The notes beneath the pieces were generated by a model that was given only the letters and a program-made list of their open reading frames with translations, did no database searches and was not told where the DNA came from. Shown here piece after piece: positions 42,183 to 62,279 of a DNA stretch of 64,000 bases (positions within the stretch are counted from its first letter, which is position 1; each line of letters opens with the position of its first letter). Position numbers and translations under genes: made by a program. Source of the stretch: Hemiscyllium ocellatum (Eukaryota); assembly GCF_020745735.1 (NCBI RefSeq), contig NC_083401.1:98081740-98145739 (forward strand). The letters run 5' to 3'.

Positions 42183-45100
42183 AAAGAAGAAAGACAGACA
42201 AAGGCAGCAGCCACGTGGTCAGTAAGGGAGAGAGAGAAAGAAACCGACACTGATAACTGACACAGCAATAAATCTGCACAGTTACTGCCTTTGCTGTTTG
42301 AGTTCATGCATCTCTGGATATCAGAGTGCGCCTAGGAAAAATTAACAAACAGCTAAATTCATAGCTGACTGTGGAGGAACCTGTGTGGGAGAGCTCACAG
42401 CACAGGAACAGACAAGTGCATAGTTTTTAAGTGTAACCTTGCTATGGGTCTGTAGTGGGTAGAGTGGGTTCTTTCTTGATTATCTGTTTTATTGGGATCT
42501 ATCTCTTAATTAAATTTCAAAAATAGAAACCATAAATACTAAGTTAACCTGTTTCTTAGAGCAAAAAGGTGGTGCTAGTTTCTGGATCTGTAGATTGTGA
42601 AGGAGTAAAGATGGCTTTGAGTAGAGTGATATGCTCTTCCTGTCAGATTTGGAAGTTTAGGGAGAGTTTCCATGTTACTGTTGCTGGAAATGTCTTTGGT
42701 TGCAAATCCTATCAGTTCACATGGATCAGTTAGAGCAGCAGTTAGAGGCAATAAGGAACTTACAAGAGCTAGGGGGTGTGATGGATAGTATTTATAGGAA
42801 GGGAGAAAAGCAGCAGACATGGTCAGGTAGATGGGTTAACTCCAGGAAAGGTAAGAGAGGTAGGCAGTTGGTGCAGGAGTTTTCTGTGGTTATCCCCATT
42901 TTCAAACAAGTATGCAGTTTTGGAAAATGTAGGGGGTGATGGATTCTCAGGGAAATATAGCATGAACAGCCAAGTTTCTGGTATTGAGACTGGCTCTAAT
43001 GTAATGAGGGGCACATTGGGTTCCAAGCTACGATTGTGATAAGGAACTCTCTAGTCAGAGGCATAGACAGATGTTTCTGCAGCCAGCAGTGAGAAATCAG
43101 AAAGGCATGTTTCCTCCCTGGTGCCAGGATCAAGGCTATCTCAGAGAAGGTGCAGCATGTTCACAGAGGGGAGAGGGACCAGCAGGAGGTCATTGTACAC
43201 ATTGGAACTAATGACATAGGAAAGGAAAAGGATGAGATTCTGAAGGGGGAATATAGAGAGTTAGGCAGGAATTTAAAAGAGAGATCCTCGAGAGTAGTAA
43301 TATCTGGATTACTCCCAGTGCTGCGAGTAAGTGAGGGTAGGAATAGGAGAATAGAGCAGATGAATGTGTGGCTGAGGAGCTAGTGCAGGGGAAAAAGATT
43401 CACATTTTTGGGCCCAGCGAAATAATGAGGAAAGAGATCAGTTTGAGACTGGCACAGTTGGGAAAAGGAGCGAGTCAAAGTCAGGGCAGGCAGGAACAAA
43501 GCAGAGAACAAGTTAGGATTGATAAATTAAACTGCATTTTCTTCAATGCAAGAAGCTAAACAGGGAAGGCAGGTGAACTCAGGGCATGGTTAGGAACATG
43601 GGACTGGGATATCATAGCAATTACAGAAATGTGGCTCAGGGATGGACAGGACTGGCAGCTTAATGTTCCAGGAGACAAATAATATTGAAAGGATAGAAAG
43701 GGAGGCAAGAGAAGAGGGGGGAGTGGCGTTTTTGATAAGAGATAGGATTATAGCTGTACTTGGGGAGGTATTCCTGAGAATACATCCAGGGAAGTTATTT
43801 GTGTGGAACGGAGAAATAAGAAAGGAAGGATCACCTTATGGGGATTGTATTATAGACCCCCTAATAGTCAGCGGGAAATTGAGAAACAAATTTGTAAGGA
43901 GATTTCAGTTATCTGTAAGAATAGTAGGGTGTTATAGAAGGGAATTTTAACTTTCCAAAGATGGATTGGGACTGCCGTAGTGTTAAGGGTTGAGGTGGAG
44001 AGGAATTTGCTAATGTGTACAAGACAATTTTCTGATTCAGTATGTGGATGTACCTACTAGAGAAGGTGTAAAACCTGACCTACACTTGGGAAATAAGTCA
44101 CGACAGGCGACTGAGGTGTCAGCGGGGGTGTACTTTGGGGCCAACAACCATAATTCTATTAGTTTTAAAATAGGGATGGAAAATTTTAGACCGGATCTAA
44201 AATTTGAAATTCTAAATTGGAAGAAGGCTAATTTTGATGGTATTAGGCAAGAACTATCAAAAGCTGATTGGGGGCAGATGTTCACAAGTAAAAGGACAGC
44301 TGGAAAGCGGGAAGCCTTCAAAATAGAGAGAGTGTCCAGAGACAATATAATCCTGTTAGGGCGAAATAAAAGGCTGGTAGGTGTAGGGAAAGCTGGATGA
44401 CGAGAGAAATTGAGGTTTTGGTTAAGAAACAGAAGGAAGCGTATGTCAGGATCAGACAGGAGAGATCGAGTGAATCCTTAAAAGAGTATAAAGGAAGTAG
44501 GAGTATACTTAAGAGGGAAATCAGGAGGGCAAAAAGGGGACATGAGATAGCTATGGCAAATAGGGTTAAGGAGAATCCAAATTAGAATTTTATAAATTTA
44601 TATTAATTTTATAAATACTTAGGGCAAAAGGGTAACTAGGGAGAGAATAGGACCCCTCATAGACCAGCAAGGCAGCCTATGTGCAGAATCACAGGAGATG
44701 GAAGAGGTACTAAATGAGTATTTTGCATCAGTGTTTACTATGGAGAAGGACGTGGAAGATATAGAATGTGGGGAAATAGATGGTGACATATCACAGAGGA
44801 GGAGGTGCATAAAAGTGGTAACTCCCCAGGATCTGATCAGGTAAACCCTAGAACTCTGTGGGAAGATCAGGAAGTAATTGCTGAGCCTCCTGCTGCGATA
44901 TTTGTATCATCGATCGTCACAGGTGAGGTGTTGAAAACTAGAGGTTGGCTAACATGGTGCCACTGTTTAAGAAGGGTGGTAAGGACAAGTCAGGGAACTA
45001 CAGACCAGTGAGCCTGACATCGGTGGTGGGCAAGGTATTGGAGAGAATCCTGAGGGACAGGATTTACATGTATTTAGAAAGGCAAGGACTGATTAGGAAT

Positions 45101-45602
45101 AGTCAGCATGGCTTTGTGCGTGGGAAATCATGTCTCACAGACTTGATTGAGTTTTTTGAAGAAGTATCAAAGAGGAATGATAAGGGCAGAGTGATAGATG
45201 AGATGTAAATGGACTTCAATGAGGTGTTCAACAAGGTTCTCCATGGGAGACTGGTTAGCAATGTTAGGTCTCATGGAATACAGGGTAAATTAGCTGTTTG
45301 TATACAGAACTGACTCGAAGGTAGAAGACAAAGGATGGTGGTAGAGGGTTGCTTTTCACACTGGAGGCCTGCGACTAGTGGTGTGCCACAAGGATTGGTG
45401 CTGGGTCCATTGCTTTTTGTTATTTATATAAATGATTTAGATATGGACATGGGAGGTATAATTAGTAACTTTGCAGATGAGACCAAAATTGGAGGTTTAA
45501 CAACCAGCAAGGAAGGTTACCTCAGAGTACAATGGAACCTTGATCAGATCAGCCAATGGGCTGAGGAGTGACAGTTGGAGTTTAATTTAGATAAATGCAA
45601 GG

Positions 45603-45756
45603 TTAGGCGAATTGGCCATGCTAAATTGCCTGTAGTGTTAGGTGAAGGGGTAAATGTAGGGGAATGGGTCTGGGTGCGTTGCTCTTCGGAGGGTCGGTGT
45701 GGACTTGTTGGGTCGAAGGGCCTGTTTCCATACTATAAATTAACTAATCTAATCAC
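45603..45756 (+). mobile_element. 5'-truncated HE1 SINE inserted in CR1 ORF2
   Basis: The SINE 3' half splits the CR1 motif FNLDKC|VLHLG. Confidence 0.8.
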
Positions 45757-46559
45757 AAATGCTGCATTTGGGAAAAGCAAATCAGAACAGGACCCACACA
45801 TTTAATGATAAGATCCTAGGGAGTGTTGCTGAACAAAGAGACACTGGAGTACAGGTTTATAGTTCCTTGAAAATAGAGTTGCAAGAGGATATGAGAGTGC
45901 AGAAGGCATTTGGCATGCTTTCCTTTATTGGTCAGAGCATTGACTAGAGGAGTTAGGAGGTTATGTTGTGGCTGTACAGGACATTAGTTAGGCCACTTTT
46001 GGAATATTGCGTGCAATTCTGGTCTCCTACCCATTGGAAGGAAGTTGCGAAACTTGAAAGGGTGCAGAAAATATTTACAAGGATGTTTCCAGGGTTGGAG
46101 GATTTGAACTATAGGGAGAGGTTGAATAGACTAGGGCTGTTTTTCCTGCAGTGTCGGAGGCTGAGGGGTGACCTTATAGAGGTTTATAAAATCATGAGGG
46201 GCATGGATAGGGTAAATAGACAAGGTATTTTCCCTGGGTTGGGCAAGTCCAGAGCTAGAGGGCATAGGTTTAGGGTGAGAGGGGAAAGATATAAAAGAGA
46301 TCTAAGGGGCAACTTTTTCACACAGAGGGTGGTACGTGTAATGGAATGAGCTGCCAGAGGAAGTGGTGGAGGCTGGTACCATTACAGCATTTAAAAGGCA
46401 TCTGGATGTGTATATGAATAAGAAGGGTTTGGAAGGATATGGGCCGGCCGGGTGCTGACAAACGGGACTAGAATGGGTTGGGATATCTGGTCGGCATGGA
46501 CGAGTTGGACCGAAGGGTCTATTTTCATGCTATACATCTCTATGACTCCATGGTGAATT

Positions 46560-47170
46560 GCACATTTCGTTACCACCCCAAATACCACCCAAACACCTTA
46601 CTAGTATTGCCATCCCAAAAAACTGATCTCCCAGTAACCGTCCATTTTAATTCCCTTTTCCACTCCCTTTCTGATATGACCATTCTTGGCCCCCTCCTTT
46701 GCCACAGCGAATCACACTGCACATTGGAGGGACAACACCTCATCCTCCGTCTGGACAATTTACAACCCAGAGGACTTAATATTGAGTTCTCCACTTTCAA
46801 ATCCCTTCCCGTCCCCCAACTCCCTTCCCAGTCCCTCCCTCCCCCTCCCTTCCATTCCTCCGATCAACCCTTCCTTGCAGCTACCAACTGCATTCATTCC
46901 TCCCATCAACCAACCAGGTCGTACCCTCTACCTGTGTTCACCTATCCCTACCTCACCACTCCGCCCCCCTCCCCCACCCCCACCCCCACCCAAAACCCTT
47001 CCCAAACCACCACCCCTCCTTTATCTGCAGCTCCCCTTACACTCATGCCCAGTCCTGAAGTCTGAATGTTGACCTCCCCACCTCCTGATGCTGCCTGGCT
47101 TGCTGTGTTCTTCCAGCCTCCTGATGGTCTACCTTGGATTCCAGCATCTGCATTTTTTTGTCTCTAACTC
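46560..47170 (+). mobile_element. PLE 3' fragment
   Basis: LPVTVHFNSLFHSLSDM...LILRLDNLQPRGLN (ORF 46478) and the PLE terminal repeat. Confidence 0.8.
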
Positions 47171-49504
47171 AACAGGGTTTAGCAGACTTGATAAAACAAT
47201 TGCATCAAATATAGGTAGGGGGGAATCAGTACTCCTTGAATGTTTGTCAGTTAAGGGGTGGCCATTGTTGATTGTTGGTAGCCAAATTAAAATATTCCAA
47301 CCACGGAGGAGAGATTAATAATAACGGGAAAACAGAAGTGGAACACAGCCACTGGGTAGAATTGGAAATAGAGGGGATTGAAATTCCAGTTCAATTTTGG
47401 GTATATTCAAATGGAGAGGGAACATTTCTGAGAATGGAAACTCTAGGGATATCAAGAGCGGTTATATTTCTTCAAGAGCATATAATGCCATGGGGAGAAG
47501 AGAAACAGATACATTCCTGACTCAGTGATCCCACCACTGCGTGTCGATGGAGGGGGGAAGTGAAAGCTACACAGGTAAATTGGAAAATAAAGGGAGAATT
47601 TGACATGAACATGGAAACTGCTTCTGATGATTTAAGCCGAACAGAAATGGGATTGTGACCAACTTGAGGGTGAACCCCCAGAGTGATTCCACAGCCAGTA
47701 GACACACCTGTAAACAGCCCCTGATTAAAGCGGGAGGTATTCGAAGCGGCAACTGGGATAATCGCGAGTGAAAATGGCAGGGGGCAGCTATAGAGTCGGC
47801 TTTCTATCAGTAACTCTCCTAATTGGCCCCTGAAGAACCCGGATGGGGCACAATGATTTACAGTCAAAGACAATGGCCTTAAATTCACTAACGCCACGAT
47901 CACACCCAATCGGAAGACCATTCTGAATGGAAAGCACAGGTCATCGGATCTTCACAGTGCTTGACATATCCAACAGGTCCTGAATAATTCCACTCCATGA
48001 AGTACTCACAATCCACAGTTTGCTTTCACTCTGAGCGAAATCCAATACACTTGGACAAGAGTGTCACAGGGATTCCACAGAATATATTCCGTCACCACCT
48101 GATGCATAAAATAGAAGGTTTTGACCCTTCCATTACCGGAGGGTACAATGTCTGGAATATCTACTTCGTCCCCGCTAGTGTAGCCGAACCATGCACAGGA
48201 ATACCTGCAACTGTTTGAGATCCTGGGGAAATCAGGGCTGAAAATTATCTCCAATGAAACCCAGTTAGAACGAGAATCTGTAGTTTATTTAGGATACTTG
48301 ATATCAAAAGGAGACAGGAACCTCGAACCCAGAAAGGAGACGACCATTTTATTGTTACCACGACCGAGGACATTGCGGGAAGTGTCACAAATTTTGGGGC
48401 TAGTCAAATACTGCAGGAGTTTTGAATTATGCTCACATCAATTCTGAGGGCACTGCACAGATTCTGTCTGATCCATTGCGATATTAAACACTTTTGTCAG
48501 TACAGATTTCAGTATCTACCTCAATATGCTCCTACATTGTGTCTATTAGCCTACCATTCTAGTATGCAGCAAGTCTGTGAAAGCGGCTTAACGAGATCGC
48601 ACAGTTTGGGCGGTGAAAGTTACTGATCCCATTATATAACACAGGCAGAGATGGTAATGAACACATAAACACCACACGCATTCATTCAGCTGTTAAATAT
48701 GGACATTGGTCTCAGATGTAAGAAGGGCACAATGGGAATGTCTCTTACTTCCGAAAACTAATTTCGACAGTCAGGGACAGGGTTATCAGCTCTGCCGAGT
48801 TAAAGAAAATTGAAAGCACAAAGCCTGTCTGTGATATACACAGAAGTGGACAGGTGAGGGAGCCCATGTAGTATTATGTGTAGATGGATCCTGGAAAATT
48901 GTGAAAGGAATTCTACCGCCCCCGCCCAAATATTAGGGCAGTAACATAGGAACATATAAAAGTTGTAGCAGGAGTTGACCATTCGGCCCCTCGAGCTAAT
49001 TCCGTCATTCAGTGTGATCATAGCTGATACCACAACTCAATTGACCTCACCCGCTTTCCCTCCCCCGACCCTTTAACACAAAGAATTATTTGTAACCTGT
49101 TCTTGAACATATTCAATACTTTGGTCTTAACTGTTTTCTGTGGCAGAGAATTTCCCTCTCTGGGTGAATATAGTAGTAGAAGATGGAGGGAGACTACTGA
49201 GCCAGGGATGCTTATCAGTGGGAGATTCAGGCGACAGAGTTCATCGCACTAACTGAGTCTTTGAAGTCAGCAGAGGACTGACCTAAACTGTCAGTCGGTA
49301 CGTATTAGGGATGGTCGATGACTTAGCTGATTCATGTGAGGGGGGAGGAAAGGCGATATGTGACACTTAGTGAGAGTTTATTGGAGGATGTACAAAAACC
49401 TAAGACGTAGCAGTAACCAAAATTAAAACTCATTGGAAAATAGGCACATCAACACGGTTTGGGAATAGTCAGAATAGAAACAGGCCCTTCGGCCCACGAG
49501 TAGA

Positions 49505-50297
49505 TAAAGCTGGATTTTGGGAAAGCAAATCTTAGCAGGACTTATACACTTAATGGTAAGGTCCTAGGGAGTGTTGCTAAACAAAGAGACCTTGGATTGC
49601 AGGTTCAAAGCTCCTTGAAAATGGAGTTGCAGGTAGATAGGATAGTGAAGAAGGCATTTGGTATATTTTCCTCTTATTGGTCAGAGTATTGAGTACATGA
49701 GTTGGGAGGTTATGGTGCAGTTGTACAGGACATTGGTTAGGCCACTGTTGGAATATTGTGTGCAATTCTGGTCTCCTTCCTATTGGAAAGATGTTGTGAA
49801 ACTTGAAAGGGTTCAGAAAAGATTTATAAGGATGTTGCCAGGGTTGGAGGATCTGAGCTATAGGGAAAGGCTGAACAGGTTGGGGCTGTTTTCCCTGAAG
49901 CGTCGGAGCCTGAGGGGTGACCTTATAGAGGTTTACAAAATTATGAGAGGTATGGATAGGATAAATAGACAAAGTCTTTTTGCTGGGTTCGGGGAATCCA
50001 GAACTAGAAGCCATAGGTTTAGGGTGAGAGGGGAAAGATATAAAAGAGAGCTAAGGGGCAACCTTTTCACGCAGAAGGTGGTACGTGTATGTAATGAGCT
50101 ATCAGAACATGTGGTGGAGGCTAGTACAATTGCAACATTTAAAAGGCATTTGGATGGGTATATGAATAGGAAGGGTTTGGAGGGATATGGGTCGGGTGCT
50201 GGCAGGTGGGTCTAGATTGGGTTGGGATATCTGGTCGGTGAGGACAGGTTGGACCGAAGGGTCTGTTTCCATGCTGTACATCTCTATGACTCTATGA
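49505..50297 (+). mobile_element. Young 5'-truncated CR1 nested in the ERV
   Basis: Open ORF 49658-50215 is the CR1 ORF2 C-terminus, followed by a (tatgactc) tail. Confidence 0.92.
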
Positions 50298-50299
50298 CA

Positions 50300-51522
50300 T
50301 GATGGACTATGAAGGAGACAATGAGGAAGTTACCAAAAAGATTGGTGAGGTCAGAGCAATAGACTTTGTTAACTTGGACTTTAGTAAAGTCTTCTACAAG
50401 ATGCTGCATGGTAGACAAATTAGTAAAGTTAGATCACATGGGAATCATGGTGGCTTAGGCAGGAGATAGAGAGTGGTGGTGGAATGTTGCTTTTGGGACT
50501 GGAGATCTGTCACCACGATGTTTCACAGGGATCAGTTTTGGGTCCTGTTTTATTTGTCATCTATATAAATGATTTGGGTGAGAATTTGAAGGCTTGGTTA
50601 ATTAGTTTGCAGATGGCTCCAAAATTGGTGGCACAGTAGACAGTGAAGGAAGTTTTCTAAGATTACAAAGGGATTTTGATCAATTGGGTCAATGGGCTGA
50701 AAAATGGCCGGTGGAGTTCAATCTGGATAAATGTGAGTAATTGCATTTGGTACAAGAAATAAGGGTAGGGCTTGTACAATTAATGGTAGGGTCTTGTGTA
50801 GTGTTGTAGATCAGAGGGATTCAGGGGTGCAAGTACATAATTCATCGATGTTTGCATTGCATATAGACAGGATGGTTAGAAGGGCATTTGGCACGCTTGT
50901 CTTCATTGCTCAGTCCTTCAAGTATAGGAGTTGGAAAATTATGTTGTGGTTGAATAGGGTATTTGTTGAGTCCTCTTTTGGAATAGTGTCATACAGTTAT
51001 ATGAAGGATATTATTAAGCTGGAGAGGGTTCAGAAGAGATTTCCCAGGATGTTGCCAGGTTTGGAAGGTTTGAGTTAAAAAGAAAGGGCTGGTTAGACTG
51101 GAATTTCTTTCACTGGAATCTAAGAGGTTGAGAGGTGACCTTATAGAAGTCTATAAAATAATGAGAGGTATTGATAGCATTAATGGCAGTTGTCTTTTCC
51201 TTCAGATGGGGAATTTCAAGACTATGGACCACATTTTTAATGTGTGAGGAAAAAGATTTTTAAAAGACATGAGGGGAAATTTTTTTACACAGAGGATGGT
51301 TTGTGTGTGCAATGAACTTCCTGAGGAAGTGGTGGATGTGGGTACAATTACAACGTTTAAAAGACATTTGGGTAAGGCCATGAATAAGAAAGGGTTGGAG
51401 GTACATGGGCCAGTAGCAGGCAGGTGGGACTAGTTTATTTTGGGTTATGTTCTGTATGGACTGGTTGGATTGAAAGGTCTGTTTCCATGCAGTGTGAATA
51501 TTTGACTCTATGGCTATGACTA
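50300..51522 (+). mobile_element. Older CR1 3' part nested in the ERV
   Basis: Degenerate RT-to-3' end CR1 sequence with tail gactctatggctatgactat. Confidence 0.85.
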
Positions 51523-51647
51523 TTTTATGGCAGCATTAAGAGACCAATGCCCAAAAAAGACATCCCTGAGGTTCATTTGACCAGGGGATGGGGGGTGGGG
51601 GTGGTTGTTGGGGGGCGGTATGTATGTGAGGTGCTGAGGTACGCTGT

Positions 51648-51913
51648 GGGTGGCACGGTGGCACAGTGGTTAGCACTGCTGCCTCACAGCGCCTGAGACC
51701 CGGGTTCAATTCCCGACTCAGGCGACTGACTGTGGAGTTTGCACGTTCTCCCCGTTTCCTCTGGGTGCTCCGGTTTCCTCCCACAGTCCAAAGATGTGAA
51801 TTGGCCATGCTAAATTGCCTGTAGTGTTAGATAAGGGGTAAATGTAGGGGTGGGTTGCGGGTTGGTGTGGACTTGTTGGGCCGAAGGGCCTGTTTCCACA
51901 CTGTAAGTAATCT
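51648..51913 (+). mobile_element. HE1-type V-SINE
   Basis: gggtggcacggtggcacagtggttagcactgc...ggttcaattcc...gggccgaagggcctgtttccacactg. Confidence 0.9.
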
Positions 51914-52267
51914 GTAAGTACAGACCAACGCCAAGTGACCAGAGTGGGAGAAAGGGGAGCACAGAATGAATCAGATGGAGCATGGAGAAAAATTGGAAAT
52001 GTTATAGCTCCCCAAAATTTACCACGGAAGTCAGAGTACAGGATGAAATAATCTGAAAGATGAATTAACTCATTGCAGGTAGTGGATAGGAGTCAGGTGG
52101 GAGGTGGCCCTAAATTGTCAGATGTATAATTTGCACCCAACGCAACCCTGAAAAATCAGATCTGACGACAGCATCAACCACGTCCCAACAAATACAAATT
52201 GACGTTAACGGAGCCATCCCTGTGTGTTGAGGAAAGCAGTATTGTCCAGTTACAATCAACCAATTCA

Positions 52268-52390
52268 CTCTGACGAAGGGTTTTGTCCAGAAACGTTGAC
52301 TTTCCTGCCGCTCGGATGCTATCTGACCTGCCGTGTCTCACCAGTTTCACATCTATTGACTTCCAGCATCTGCAGTCCTCACTGTCTCCA
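52268..52390 (+). mobile_element. PLE terminal fragment with HHR motif inserted in the integrase
   Basis: CTGACGA-agggttttgtcca-GAAA-CGTT-gac followed by the gatgct...cagcatctgcag tail. Confidence 0.65.
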
Positions 52391-53025
52391 ATGTACCCGA
52401 TAGGTGGAGCCAAATCCCTCTTCTAGAGACTGCTCTGCCGGGGCGGTAACACAACCATAAAAGAGGGTGTCCATAACGTTAATAGATTCTGACCTAGGCA
52501 CCTATTTTACCACCAATGACACATGTAAACATTTAGGAAAAGGTAGAAATTCCACATTCCGTTCCACCCTCAAAACTTTGCATAATGGAGCGGGTGAAGA
52601 GAAATTTAAAGGCCTCGTTAGCCAAAGCGATTCAGGTAGTAGGTACCAGTATCCTAGTACCATCCCAAACTGAACGACAGGGTACACCCCGTTCTAATTA
52701 ATGAGGGCGATGTGGTGGCCCAAGGATGTCGTAGCATGATGGATTCCCCTCAATAAACAAATATAGATTACGTAAGAGATGATGAACAAGCAATTGCACA
52801 AAATGAAGCTAACAAAAAATTAGTGCTGTAGAAACGGACAGAACAAAGGAGCCACAACAAATGCCTCAAGTGCGGAACAGGATAATAGTCAACATTAACT
52901 CCGACAGAGTTGGACTTTCCCCCAGTTAGACGCACCATGTGAAGTAATTATGACAGGTGATACGTGCGCACTTGCAGATTTGAAAGAAAACATTAGTCCA
53001 ATTAAAAGTATATGGAGAACTTAGT

Positions 53026-53326
53026 GGGCGGCACGGTGGCACAGTGGTTAGCACTGCTGCCTCATAGCGCCTGTAGACCCGGGTTCAATTCCCGACTCAG
53101 GCGACTGACTGTGTGGAGTTTGCACGTTCTCCCCGTGTCTGCGTGGGTTTCCTCCGGCTGCTCCGGTTTCCTCCCACAGTCACAAAGATGTGCGGGTCAG
53201 GTGAATTGAAATTGCCCGTAGTGTTAGGTAAGGGGTAAATGTATGGGTGGGTGGCGGGTCGGTGTGGACTTGTTGGGCCGAAGGGCCTGTTTCCACACTG
53301 TAAGTCTAATCTAATCTAAAAAAAAA
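53026..53326 (+). mobile_element. HE1-type V-SINE
   Basis: Near-identical to the copy at 51648, with a (ctaat)n plus A tail. Confidence 0.9.
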
Positions 53327-53979
53327 CTCCCACTTAGCAACCTGGACATCGGAAGTCGACTTTATTTAAAAAAAAAATTTGGAATGTAATGCTCACTATT
53401 GGAGAGATAGTGCGAAGCCCCGATGATTTATATAAACCGCAATAAACGCCTTCATCTGGGACAGTATGTCTATTTACCATGAGGAGGGACCGGAGAATGG
53501 GTTAGTAAACCCAGTACTTAGGAATCAGACTGAATCACTCCTGTTAGTCACTGGACTCAGGCGGTAACATGGACATAATAGATGGATTAAATTATTTTTA
53601 AACCGAGGATACCAATTTATTAACTCAGGATATGAGTGGAGTGGGAAGGCTGTCTTTAATAATACAAACAGAAAACCAGAAGAATTAGTGGATATATGAT
53701 TTAAATAGGGAGTGGAATATTCCTCTATATACTCCTGGGAATCTCGAAACTACATTTTCAGCCAGTAATTTGAATTTGGGAGGGATCCATGGAAGGACAT
53801 TGTACTGAGCATATGATAAGATGTGTCTGAGGTTAATATCAGTCTAAATTCATCTGTGATGCTCCGTAACAATATGATTGGAAATATGACTGGATAGACC
53901 GTATTGCCAAGTATAAGGCTGTAAAATGGCCTTAAATACTTAGCGGATATCAAAACTCCACGCTGCGAGTCCGCTAGAT

Positions 53980-55700
53980 GGGATGGTGAGGATAGGGAAA
54001 CTCAGCCATTATTGTATGGTGTTACTATGGTCACTTTTGAAGTAACATCATGTGTCAGGATAGATACCTATCTTAGATGCTACATGTAATACCTCTCCAA
54101 GGACCGTGCGGTGGGTGGGCCGAGCAACAGCTAGGAAGAAACACAAGAGAAAGTTCAGAGTTGCCCCAGGGATAAGTAGGCACCATGGAGTGATGCGCAG
54201 GGAAAGGGGAACCCCACTGGAGATTTCGCTTCGTTGTTTGGCAACGCCAATTCGCTAAAGATCCGTAGAATATGCCATCTGTCAGAAACGAGGTATTCTG
54301 TGTGGCCATCGAGACAGCTCGGGGAGTGCAGTTTGGAAGCAAGGGGACAGTATCTGTGTTAACGCTAATAGATGTGCAATGATTTGGAGATGCCGGTGTT
54401 GGACTGTGGTGTACAAAGTTAAAAATCACACAAACCTGGTGTTGTGTGATTTTTAAAGATGTACAATGAAAAGGGACCGTTAGGGTGTTAAACTAAGGCC
54501 GGGCTTGCAACATGTTAGCCCGAGACTTAATCGAAAGTGTGAGGCCCAATATCAAGGACATCCGATTTGGAACAATTCCAGAACAGATTTTTTTTCGGTC
54601 TATAGTTGAAGCCCAAAACTACATGAAGAACGGCAAGAAGCAACCGAAGCCCAGGAGCTGGTAGGACAGGGAGAATCGGATTCTTGATAATTATTCTATC
54701 TGTCTTGCCACTCCCGGTTTGAAGCGCTGGGTCTATATAACGAGAGGCAGCGTCCGAGGAGCAGGAGAATCGACCTTTCGGTCAAATGCCCTTCATCAGG
54801 CCTTAAGATCCCTTCTCAGTCCTTCAATTCCTGAGGAAAGGCTCTTGCCCGAAACATCGACTCTCCTGCTCCTCGGATGCTGCCTGACCTGCTGAGCACC
54901 CCACTCTCGATTCTTGATCCCCAGCAGCTGCAGGCCCTGTATACAAGGAGAGACGAGTATATCGAGAAGGGTCACAATTAACAGTATTGTTTTTTAAGGA
55001 CACGGGCTTGTTGTTCAGAATCAATAAATTACATTGCTTGTTCCGCCCAAACTCGAAGGCCATGGAAAAATGATAGCACATATTGTTTCCGGTCCTGACG
55101 ACAGAGGAGCAATTTAAGGCGTTTCAGGTTACCCCAGACTCAATGGTGTTTTATACGAAATGAGAAACAATTTACATTTGGTCAGTTGGTGTGTATGTGT
55201 AACGGCAGCTTCTGCATTCAAGTCACCCACTCCTTCACGATGGGAAACTTCTATCTACCCGGGAGGGCAGTGAATACCTTCTGTTCAGTGTCCTTTCACA
55301 GACCGCATACTGGACAAAATGATGCGAATAGGTATATGCAAAGTATGGCCCAGATAGCTCAGGAGTATGTAGAATCTACACTAAGACAAGAAAACAGGTG
55401 AATCTGGAAACCCAAACTGTCAGGGGACTAATTAACTCAGCAAAGGAATCAGACAGAAACACCACAAGATGGCAGGGAACATGTAGGTTAGGAATCACCG
55501 CTGATGTTAATTTGTCTATGTTGCTATCAGAGGGAAATGTTGTGAAGAACACGACCGATTATGATAGCAGGATACACGCAAGTGCCTCAGATGGGGAAAA
55601 AAAATGCACCTCGCAAACCGACTTGATATAATACTTAGGTTAAATTGTTTAGGATTCCTCTCCCAGACTGGACCGCTGGCCATCTGGAGAAAGGGGGAAA
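53980..55700 (+). pseudogene. Degenerate env-like gene of the ERV
   Basis: Lies after IN. Furin-like RRER (54196-54207) is followed across a frameshift by the fusion-peptide-like GDFASLFGNANSL. Then come ACNMLARDLIESVRPNIKDIRFGTIP, RIGFLII and Cys-rich segments (CMCNGSFCIQ). Purine tracts lie downstream. Confidence 0.6.
54745..54935. mobile_element. Inverted pair of HHR-bearing PLE termini inserted in env
   Basis: Minus strand: CTGATGA-agggcatttgacc-GAAA-ggtcga (~54768-54800). Plus strand: CTGAGGA-aaggctcttgccc-GAAA-catcga (~54830-54860). Confidence 0.7.
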
Positions 55701-55744
55701 AATTCTCAGCTTGAAAATTAGCCTATTTAGGTTCTGCCAAATCC

Positions 55745-56075
55745 AAAAGGGGACACTGAAAGGCTGAAAAAGGACAGAACCTCAAGACACACTACAGATC
55801 AGGATGCTAGAACCAGCTACAAGCATTAAGTATTCCTGTAATGTTTTCTGGATTCCCAGCCATGGGAATTTTATCAATGTTTCCTGGATACCAGCTGGTT
55901 AACCACCTTCTACTCTTCATCTGCAGGTATCTGAGGAGGTCTCCACAACTTGATCAAAACCACAGTTTAACAACAGCATTCTGGAAATCCTTCAACATTA
56001 GCTTCAGTTTGAGCAGTTTGTGCCACTTTTTAAACTCTGGATCAACCTGCCATCAACTTGCTACCACTTCAGACA
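55745..56075 (+). mobile_element. Candidate polypurine tract and start of the ERV 3' LTR
   Basis: AAAAGGGGA (55745-55753) followed by TG at 55757. A second purine run lies at 55686-55702. No matching 5' LTR is seen. Confidence 0.35.
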
Positions 56076-57444
56076 CTGGACTGAGGAGTGGCAGCTGGAG
56101 TTTAATTTGAATAAAGGCGAGGTGTTGCATTTGGGTAAGACAAACCAGGGCAGGACTTACACAGTTAATGGTAGGTTGTGTTGTTAAGCAGGGATGCCTG
56201 AAATGCCAGCCTCGATATTGGCTTTTGTCTCTGCGTTTGAACTTGAAAACACAACTTTGTTATTTAAAGCAAGAATGCTACACAGTACCATATAAAGGCA
56301 GGCTTTAGACATAGGAATGGCTGAGCTTGCATTCCAAGCACACACAACAGGACTTTCAGTGGATGGGCTCTTAGTTTTAAGGCAGGAAATAGATGGCACT
56401 GCAGTTGAAACTTAGCCATTACATTTTCTAATACCATTATGTTTTGCTATAGAAAGACACATTTTGTGAAATCCTTTCTTCTTGCAATGATCAGGGACAT
56501 TCACAAGAATATCCATTTAAAGAAGAACAACATTTCAGTGTCAGTCATCATGGAACTGGAGCATTCTGCTTGTTTGTGCTTCTACAGTTCAGAGTTCACT
56601 TGCCAATCAATCAGCACTTTTTTCTCACACGGTATAAAATCTTAGATTGACACTCTTGCAAATGTCCTGATGAGTGAAAGATGAAAAAGATCAACAAAAT
56701 GTGTCTTTTTTTCCAGCAACACTCAAGTTCTCTACTGTCAAACAACAGCAGTGTGAGAACTGAAACACAGAAAGGTGGTGGTATAAGTTAGTTATGTAGC
56801 AAATTGAAGCTTGTGTCAGTTGCTAAGATTTGTGCAATCATTGTTATTCCCCATATCCATACATGACTTGAAGAAGTGAATAAAAAAAATTCCAGAATTT
56901 TCTGACAATAACAAATTTATGAATTTGAAACTGTGAAGATAAGCAAAGGAGAATGCAGAAGACATAGCATTGTTTGGGATATGTGTAGAAAACATATATT
57001 TATATTCATTTATATATTGCTTCATTACATCCTCAGGATATCTCAACGATTTATATTCTGATGAATTACTTTTGAGATATTTTCTAGTCACGTGGAGTAA
57101 ATGAGGTGGCCAATTTGATTCCAAAGCCACCTAAGTGGATGGCTCTTGGTCTTTGCCAACTGGTAATCAGAAATAAATATTGGATTGTTATAGTTACCAA
57201 TCTCTAGATGTGAGGGCTGAATGGGCTGCAAGTGGCCACCTGGGCTCCTGTAATTAATATCATACCATTCTTAAATTTCAGGTCATACCCCTCCAAGTAT
57301 CATTGACCAGCAACATAGGATTAAGTTATGATCATGACAGCTTCATTAAAGATATTCCTGAAACTGGGCTACATGATTGAAAAATATCGAGAGAGAGAAA
57401 GAGAGAAGCCCATTTCAGTTGTGGTTTTAAAAGAAGCAACATCA

Positions 57445-60260: not shown

Positions 60261-62279
60261 AACGTTGGTATAAAAGTGTCCCGGGTACTATTTGAAGAAG
60301 TGCAGGAGAGTTCACCTCATGTCCATGCCACCAGTTTTCTCTCAAACAAAACTCACCAAACAGATTGATTAGTCGTTGATCCCATTGCTCTTTGTGAAAG
60401 CTTATTATGAAATTTGGTTGCTATGTTTTCCTAGATTAAAGATGTTTGGGATAAAAAAGCAATCTGCACTAATGAGCCTCTTCACTTGCCAGGCATATGA
60501 CCTCTATTGTGAGGTATACACACACCGGAGAAGCCTTCTTGCAAGGGCTTCAATAAAGATACAGTACAGATTTGACTGCTGCTTTGTGAACACAGAACAT
60601 GGTGTCAGAAATGAAGCTGAGCTTGGGTGTTGAAGAACTGTAAAACTGAACAATATCTGACAGAGTCACAGAATGTTCAGAATTATGAAAGCAACTGTTA
60701 CAAGCAACTGAAAGAAACTGAAAAAGAACAAAGAACAGGCTGCACCAGAAACACTGGGTAACAGACAATGAGTGCAACATCTTCTCTCTGGTCAAACTGA
60801 GAAGTGATCTGAAATAAAACTTGCAGTTTTTCCACATGCAATGGCAAATTGACTAACCAACGTCAGATCAGCTTCACAGGCCAGTGCAGTTATGAATAGC
60901 TGTGCACATCACTGTCAGGAAATGACTGTCTCAGAGCATATTCCACTCTAAATCTCTCTGAACAACAGAAAAAAGAAACAGATTACAGCCTTGTGAGCCT
61001 TGAAGGCATATGTTGAACTCCAAGTGAATGTTCAATATTAGAGTCATGCTGAAATCATCCATTGATCAATATTTGGCACATTCACTCAGCTCACATAATT
61101 TTATGAGTTTGTGCAACTAAAAGACAGTAGGAGACATAAGAGATTTTTGCAGTGAGAGGACATCTACTGAGGAGAAACTTACTCTCAGGAAAGCAATTGA
61201 CATGTGCAGAAACAAAGGTTGCAAACTAGCAGTGAGAGCACATTCATGGCAGAACAGACAAAGTCTTTCATTTCACAGGTAGATACTCCAGACCTAAAGA
61301 GCAGAACAATCATGGACGAAGGATGGTATGCAAACACTGTGGAGGACATTGTAGAGAACAGGATAGCAGTGTTCTCACTGTAAGAAACCAAATCATTTTG
61401 TGCACAAGTGTCTAATGGTAAAGCAGGACACCAAGCAGGAACAGACGGCCACTGGAGAGTATCAGCTGAACATGCTGCAAATCACTCAAAATAAAATAGT
61501 GGGTTGGTTCAGTCAAGTTGGTAGGTCAGACATGGTAATGTGGCTATTGGAATGATGATTGCAGAAGATGAAAATCTTCCATAAAGTGTCAGATAGGCAC
61601 TGGTTCATCATGCAACATCATGATCTTCACTGACCTGTCTGTGTAAAGCAGTTCAGCATGGTAACTCAGTCAGGTTGAGGTAAAATGATGGCAGCATACT
61701 TGTATTGAGAGGGTTGATTTCTCTGTAAACCCACTGAAATAACATGAACGAAGATCAGGAATTCCAGATCAGAGACAGTGAACAACAGCCACTTAGTTCA
61801 ACTAGAGCAAGTCAAAAGCTTCGACTGCCCTCAATGTGCCAAAAATTATTGGCAACCTATAGAAACACATTAGCCCAATGGCTGTGGAACAGATAGATTA
61901 TTCATCTTCTTAAAGGTGGCTCATTCTGCTTGAGGAGCCCAATATCACAGGTGGCGAAGGTTTCTTAAAGGACGACTGCATCTTGTAAATGGGAGGTTAA
62001 TTTGGTTGCATGAATTGAATGAAATCCTTTGTGGGCTGAACCTAAATTGTAAAAAAATTAAAGCTTTGCAGAAGATGCATGGTGCAAGATAAGCAGAGAA
62101 GGGAAAAGTCCTGTAGGGTGGGGACAAGGCCTTCAAGGAATAAGCTGAGGAGACAGTAGAAAGAATTAGCAATAGTATGCAATATCAAAAATATAGCTGC
62201 AAGAACACGGTGCATAATTTTATGGTTCCCCCACTGACATGTTTGCCTGGTTGAGGATACAAAAGATTCCCTGGGTGAA

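Follow-up and report, generated by a model that had tools for sequence, protein, structure and literature searches.

A decayed provirus occupies positions 47.2-55.7 kb of a 64,000-nucleotide stretch of the Hemiscyllium ocellatum genome (contig NC_083401.1, positions 98,081,740 to 98,145,739 of the forward strand; hereafter the window), in the order protease (PR), reverse transcriptase (RT), tether, RNase H, integrase (IN), an envelope (Env)-like region and a polypurine tract (PPT). In the reading that we favour, with a probability of roughly 0.85, the provirus is dead and truncated at its 5' end, its RT groups with those of a family of canonical non-foamy shark retroviruses, and it entered the germ line as an insertion and then decayed neutrally. 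The locus is a very old member of an under-described family of shark endogenous retroviruses (ERVs), which makes it an ordinary kind of fossil. A preliminary description of the window, made from the letters alone, had instead proposed a relative of foamy viruses or lokiretroviruses.

Anatomy and decay of the provirus

Virus-derived DNA at the locus totals about 5.05 kb and is interrupted by at least seven nested repeats. The domain order, which the preliminary description had already read correctly, was borne out by ERVs of the same genome and by profile searches: PR, RT, tether and IN are colinear (tblastx) with G000:C9:37004296-37014219, an ERV bounded by long terminal repeats (LTRs), and the Pol profile of the shark family gave 187 bits summed over five colinear stretches of the locus and nothing in 20 of 20 shuffled sequences. 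All of the RT and IN motifs cited earlier were found by three-frame translation of the locus, in which they are spread over the three frames. The features are listed below (window positions, strand where it applies, identity).

47200..47508, +, protease remnant, catalytic motif destroyed, remnant of the motif near 47240-47257
47677..48423, +, reverse transcriptase, frameshifted, stops present, YxDD motif destroyed
47815-47847, RT motif SPNWPLKNPDG
47954-47971, RT motif VLDISN
48046-48078, RT motif YTWTRVSQGFH
48453..48545, nested host repeat, the seventh insert, with 14 other genomic places at 74-77%
48574..48762, +, tether (connection) domain with a motif of the shark-family type
48856..49465, +, second RNase H, interrupted by an insert, with the VDGS motif at about 48877-48888
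48945..49160, nested old repeat; best near-full-length other copy 73% (40 scored of 545 candidates)
49470..51915, +, nested pieces that we take to be a CR1-type long interspersed element (LINE) and a short interspersed element (SINE); with copies at 87-90% in other parts of the window
51950..52988, +, integrase remnant (zinc-finger region, core, C-terminal part), from colinear tblastx matches and profiles; split by 52269-52392
52269..52392, nested repeat, matched by 19 fetched loci
52482-52511, IN motif IDSDLGTYFT
52550-52573, IN motif FHIPFHPQ
53020..53326, +, nested young SINE, 85-87% to other copies
53327..55540, +, env-like remnant, with a basic cluster RKKHKR at 54133 and inserts at 54379-54456 and 54745-54936
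55686..55702, +, polypurine tract, GAAAGGGGG common to comparator PPTs
55901..56173, host repeats past the provirus, not LTR (pieces 55901-56043 and 56077-56173)
42200..47167, LINE and other repeats adjoining the 5' end, the expected place of gag and the 5' LTR

The protease remnant is 26-42% identical to ERVs of the same genome (tblastx) and was also recognised by profile and by comparison by eye with the start of the comparator PR. The tether matches shark-family copies at 61-71% identity over 14-18 aa (13.5 bits by profile), and the profile match of the second RNase H is weak (49173-49472, 1.9 bits). The tether plus second RNase H, in broken frames, mark the element as a degenerate true retrovirus, as had been proposed; this dual RNase H is common to all retroviruses. 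The six inserts named in the preliminary description are all repeats, while the seventh, at 48453-48545, had escaped it. The PPT, which the preliminary description also noticed, resembles those of the comparators. The provirus had been drawn as far as 56075, and here the boundary has to be moved: host repeat takes over past 55900, which puts the end of the viral part near 55702-55900. The stretch after the PPT was considered as an LTR, which is ruled out for 55901-56173 because it is part of a longer host repeat. On the other side, a near full-length CR1-type LINE with a SINE inside it (42200-46556) adjoins the provirus region.

Neither gag nor an LTR was found in the window and 10 kb on each side of it (best E 0.21), and no primer-binding site was detected there either; decay could hide all three. 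Pfam returned no family for six X-read frames of the locus, Rfam nothing for window positions 40-58 kb, and a PDB sequence search with the IN frame no match. In the viral parts at most 100 aa can be read without meeting a stop, in agreement with the earlier remark that every frame is broken. Given the loss of the catalytic motifs of PR and RT, and viral frames that are open over 100 aa at most, the locus makes no working protein, and it is likely to have no present function. Elsewhere in the window, a CCHC zinc knuckle lies in a decayed frame at 61370-61411; it is probably a relic of a Gypsy-type gag unrelated to the provirus.

Placement among retroviruses

The family to which we assign the locus includes a Gag-Pol protein of the horn shark Heterodontus francisci (XP_067870587), env proteins of Mustelus asterias and Chiloscyllium punctatum, and the LTR-bounded copy in the same genome named above, which has a CCHC Gag and LTRs that are 93.9% alike. 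The proteins P0164 and P0165 are the closest intact relatives of XP_067870587 (55%), and a search of the same genome with them gave 84 matches among 50 scored candidates, that LTR-bounded copy being one of them. The Gag of this family carries CCHC knuckles; gag is absent at the locus. When frame 1 of 47305-48900 was compared by phmmer with 1.84 billion proteins, 332 matches at E<=0.001 were obtained, and the first of them was XP_067870587 (an ERV Gag-Pol with CCHC knuckles; E 1.7e-17 for the locus RT); 10 of the 150 matches listed were looked up by name.

In the RT tree the locus is represented by a single natural frame, in which 182 residues are informative. FastTree was run on all 83 rows and IQ-TREE on 45 of them, 38 having been dropped for run time. 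The lokiretrovirus references were three natural elements from metagenome contigs, matched by motif to alignment rows of PMC7947760, and two of the three give weak Fusion_gly matches; a lokiretrovirus motif search of viral contigs returned none. The reference for snakehead retrovirus (SnRV; P0178, L146) was labelled as such because its motifs are identical to those of the SnRV row in the same alignment, the other references included 15 foamy viruses and the genome's own foamy-like family, and the epsilon, gamma, ERV-L and Gypsy labels were assigned by us from motifs and hosts. Rows of Odin retrotransposons, which have an RT sister to that of lokiretroviruses and no env, and of published fish foamy-like ERVs (FLERVs) were outside the set.

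In the IQ-TREE tree the locus joins the shark family (XP_067870587 and LTR-bounded copies of the same genome) with support of 100/97, and FastTree places it within this family at 0.99. The RT tree that the preliminary description had called for thus puts the locus neither with lokiretroviruses, which form a group (100/99) outside and sister to all other retroviruses, nor with foamy viruses, which stand apart (100/100). The profiles follow the same order, with 187 bits for the shark family, 93 for the SnRV group, 72 for epsilon/gamma (class I), 34 for foamy viruses and 2 for lokiretroviruses, figures that are not strictly comparable because the profiles were built from 7, 7, 7, 6 and 3 sequences, respectively.

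That the locus is the first chondrichthyan lokiretrovirus is extremely improbable, unless decay has distorted the RT placement. Such an element would explain the dual RNase H, the motifs NSPIWP and SD.G.HF, which lokiretroviruses share, and the F-like Env predicted for the shark family; this last Loki-like feature, drawn from structural models, was absent from the preliminary description. The approximately unbiased (AU) test, however, rejects placement of the locus at the lokiretrovirus branch (p=6.8e-11), the lokiretrovirus profile gives its 2 bits (from only 3 sequences), and the lokiretrovirus rows have an RCPFGY-like string (all those seen carry PFG[YL]) where the locus has YTWTRVSQGFH. 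The motifs that had suggested Spumaretrovirinae or lokiretroviruses match instead SnRV, which reads YTWTRLPQGFH and LDISNGFW, and CmiERV lineage I of the elephant shark; the IN motif SD.G.HF is common to most groups tested. The host list given in the preliminary description, without cartilaginous fishes, agrees with PMC7947760, where lokiretroviruses were found in 0 of 6 chondrichthyan genomes.

We also give very little credence to an FLERV (clade Tu) or a lineage basal to Spumaretrovirinae. FLERVs are known from sharks, foamy Env is F-related according to PMC11468914, and foamy RT gives the best PDB matches of the locus RT frame. Against this, the AU test rejects grouping with foamy viruses (p=0.0043), the foamy-like family of this genome lies at a great distance from the locus, and the shark family has CCHC knuckles in Gag and an RNase H that is not of the foamy type. 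In a quick tree of intact members this RNase H clusters (99) with the enzymes of SnRV and class I, at a distance from those of foamy viruses and lokiretroviruses. Foamy Gag is not known to carry CCHC knuckles.

The earlier opinion that the locus is not a gamma or epsilon ERV holds, as grouping with epsilon/gamma is rejected (p=0.024) and class I forms its own group (100/98) without the locus. An RT inside Ty3/Gypsy, which had been named among the findings that would overturn the earlier proposal, is also rejected (p=6.7e-11), in a test that is not independent because its likelihood loss is the same as that for lokiretroviruses. The IN tree, proposed together with the RT tree, was built and proved uninformative since its long branches meet.

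Several observations weigh against assignment to the shark family. The branch of the locus is very long (1.89) and its best identity is 38%, so that, with 182 informative residues, the placement is less sure than the support figures say. The mask and the scored pieces were picked via family alignments, which favours the family. In the PDB the RT frame finds foamy RT first (E 5.9e-12) and murine leukaemia virus after it (2.7e-9). The shark family and SnRV form an open polytomy in the IQ-TREE tree; their grouping was not recovered there and is not rejected by the AU test (p=0.20), and a quick tree of RT plus tether puts the shark family weakly beside class I (84). The position of the family among canonical non-foamy retroviruses is therefore left as a polytomy, SnRV-like in motifs and class III in the broad sense.

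It is possible, if doubtful, that the locus represents a separate deep canonical lineage merely nearest to the shark family, or that the family itself lies between SnRV-like elements and class I. In addition to the polytomy, this would account for an RT only 30-37% identical over the full query to its best-scoring genomic copies, and for an env that is distant from that of the family and more like another relic. Decay, however, inflates distance, and PR, the tether and the C-terminal pieces of IN match the shark family best, with the support of 100/97 in the RT tree.

The envelope

What is worth pursuing here is a prediction about the relatives of the locus, namely that the Env of the shark family is of the F type. 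This Env has a furin site, a long heptad helix, a cysteine-rich beta region and a C-terminal membrane segment. Two AlphaFold models, both of low confidence (pLDDT 42 and 51; the second is the family B Env, about 30% identical), were searched by Foldseek, and all PDB rows listed for both are paramyxovirus or pneumovirus F proteins, with best E-values of 5e-5 and 1e-4 and TM-scores under 0.3. Matches in BFVD, obtained with the same kind of low-confidence query, add other F-type proteins and walleye retrovirus Env. Using VIA-align, the second model matched helical bundles only (best Z 8.2), and foamy Env, at Z 6.9, was not above background. A PDB sequence search with the shark-family env gave nothing significant. 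The ESM Atlas placed P0231 in F-like clusters at 0.91-0.92 with recognition at 1608, which makes this evidence weak, and a 100-aa env piece of the locus gave no usable match there. These low-confidence models lead us to predict a paramyxovirus-F-like Env for the shark family.

The two walleye proteins in BFVD, A4GTG3 and Q9WHI8 (walleye dermal sarcoma virus (WDSV) and WEHV1 Env), rank 2 and 8 with E-values of 1.1e-6 and 2.0e-5, which hints that the Env of fish epsilonretroviruses may be F-type too. No literature that reports an F-type Env for WDSV, for SnRV-like elements or for ERVs of sharks was found, subscription papers and bioRxiv supplements being outside the coverage of the search.

As to the locus itself, the env-like region foreseen in the preliminary description does lie between IN and the PPT, and its identity draws on two weak matches to the family Env profile, colinear with it, at 54491-54589 and 55141-55248. 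They are the best two of the whole window, and in a restricted search the better one scored 6.7 bits, above 100 of 100 shuffles (maximum 5.4). Other results speak against the assignment: among 720 tiles the two matches come second and third, the first being unrelated, hhalign gives a probability of 0.8% for the env relics against the family Env, and pairwise comparison of env reaches z of at most 4.0, which is not significant. Because the pairwise and profile-profile tests are not significant, an F-type env remnant at the locus is likely, and we do not put it higher.

A recombinant, in which a shark-family pol was joined to an env of another source, or DNA on the env side that is not env at all, seems unlikely to us. 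The individual insignificance of the env matches would fit either case, as would a CX6CC-like string at about 54985-55011, and CmiERV lineage I, read by eye, pairs a similar pol with a gamma-type env, so that env swapping does occur. Yet two of the three best env-profile matches lie in the 2.4 kb where env is expected, on the correct strand and in the expected order, the better of them exceeds every shuffle, and no immunosuppressive motif of the QNR type was seen by eye in the env of the locus.

One decayed env relic of the subtype of the locus was found elsewhere in the genome (G000:C8:29595144-29595338; E 1.6e-7, 51% over 41 aa), with no detectable pol in 20 kb.

Copy number, orthology and age

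Collecting further copies of the locus had been suggested; DNA searches of the genome found no other copy of its viral parts. Nested repeat accounted for 14 of 15 matches of the RT query and host repeat for 6 of 7 matches of the 3' query, and the env query matched only itself. At the protein level, the 30-37% given above for RT is the best among 150 scored of 2422 candidates. Copy numbers from these searches are lower bounds.

Sequencing runs of two other related organisms cover the env-side stretch and the 3' flank at similar depth, and one contig of these relatives extends from the env part across the PPT as far as the host repeat, while none spans the whole locus. From the relatives the element differs by 4.7-5.0% and its flank by 4.1-4.7%. 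Such near-equal divergence, at equal depth, is what is expected of a single orthologous insertion free of selection, and the env-side part of the locus is apparently old and decaying neutrally. At the shark substitution rates of 0.5e-9 and 2.2e-10 used in PMC10699275 and PMC4422223, respectively, the split from the relatives alone would date to about 50-110 million years ago, a rough figure as the rates are uncertain. The insertion may be several-fold older, because one nested repeat shares only 73% with the best of its scored copies (40 of 545).

The history of the locus would then be the following. The germ line of an ancestral shark would have been infected once by an enveloped retrovirus with the order PR-RT-tether-RNase H-IN and probably an F-type Env. 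Reverse transcription with a PPT-primed plus strand would have been followed by integration, and the insertion would have become fixed before the split from the two related organisms. Copies of LINEs and SINEs would subsequently have entered pol and env, and gag and the LTRs would have been lost or have decayed past detection.

Other retroviral elements in the same genome

The foamy-like element of this genome is not the window locus but a young family of the L151 type (for example, G000:C3:119529004-119529771). In about 120 of 147 scored matches its RT is 42-45% identical to foamy virus RT, many frames of 1724 aa are open, and in the RT tree its place among the foamy viruses has support of 100/100. 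A second young ERV family (L081-L086, on G000:C6, C8 and C61) has LTRs that are 98-99% alike, an SnRV-like primer-binding site and an F-type Env whose N-terminus gives a weak Ig-domain match (Pfam Ig_3, E 0.012). A stop-free env-like frame of 764 aa, 22% identical to the shark-family Env, lies at G000:C6:95620603-95622894 (L079-L080) with neither a pol match nor a pair of LTRs within 20 kb, and is a candidate co-opted envelope gene.

Implications and comparison with known systems

SnRV-like and class III ERVs of cartilaginous fish are already published, and Table 2 of PMC11089739 counts 2843 clade III RT loci in six chondrichthyan genomes. The locus is one of many class III relics and does not extend the host range of lokiretroviruses. 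If several sharks prove to share the insertion by orthology, this would set a minimum age for the family. The Loki (PMC7947760) and Odin papers describe an F-like Env in lokiretroviruses and not in canonical retroviruses, with four open scenarios for the origin of Env, and PMC11468914 puts orthoretroviral Env in a fusogen class different from F. A canonical non-foamy family with an F-type Env, if confirmed, would favour an ancestral F-type Env. We suggest, tentatively and with more doubt than conviction, that the locus is a datable fossil (possibly >100 million years) of a canonical non-Loki, non-foamy shark retrovirus with an F-type envelope, that the F fold is ancestral, and that Env of the gamma/beta type replaced it later. 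This reading would draw also on the Env of lokiretroviruses, foamy viruses and possibly walleye epsilonretroviruses being F-type.

Among the known systems, lokiretroviruses (Wang and Han 2020, PMC7947760) share with the locus the dual RNase H and with the shark family the predicted F-like Env. They differ in that the locus RT falls outside them and lacks RCPFGY, and an RNase H of group I, which they have in common with foamy viruses, is not seen in intact members of the shark family, whose RNase H is of another group (quick tree). Foamy viruses and FLERVs of fish and sharks, the latter already published (PMC5512871 and PMC10699275), show general RT similarity and an F-related Env class; their RT placement is rejected, and the CCHC Gag and the RNase H type of the shark family set them apart.

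SnRV, with clade Huo and class III ERVs (Xu et al. 2018, PMC6001957), shares with the locus the RT motifs LDISN and YTWTR..QGFH and with the intact shark family a CCHC Gag, the type of RNase H and a fish host. It nevertheless scores well below the shark family on the locus, one clade was not recovered, and SnRV Env does not match the shark-family Env profile (E 0.035). CmiERV lineage I, described as SnRV-related (Han 2015, PMC4422223), has a chondrichthyan host and, by eye, the same set of RT and IN motifs, and differs in its gamma-type env with QNR...CX6CC, its SnRV-type tether motif and its intact LTR pair. The closest system is the shark ERV family, with which the locus shares a colinear Pol, the tether motif, the PPT and an RT clade supported at 100/97; the copies of this family are multicopy and far younger, with LTRs 88-94% alike, whereas the locus stands at about 31-38% identity to them, with a more distant env.

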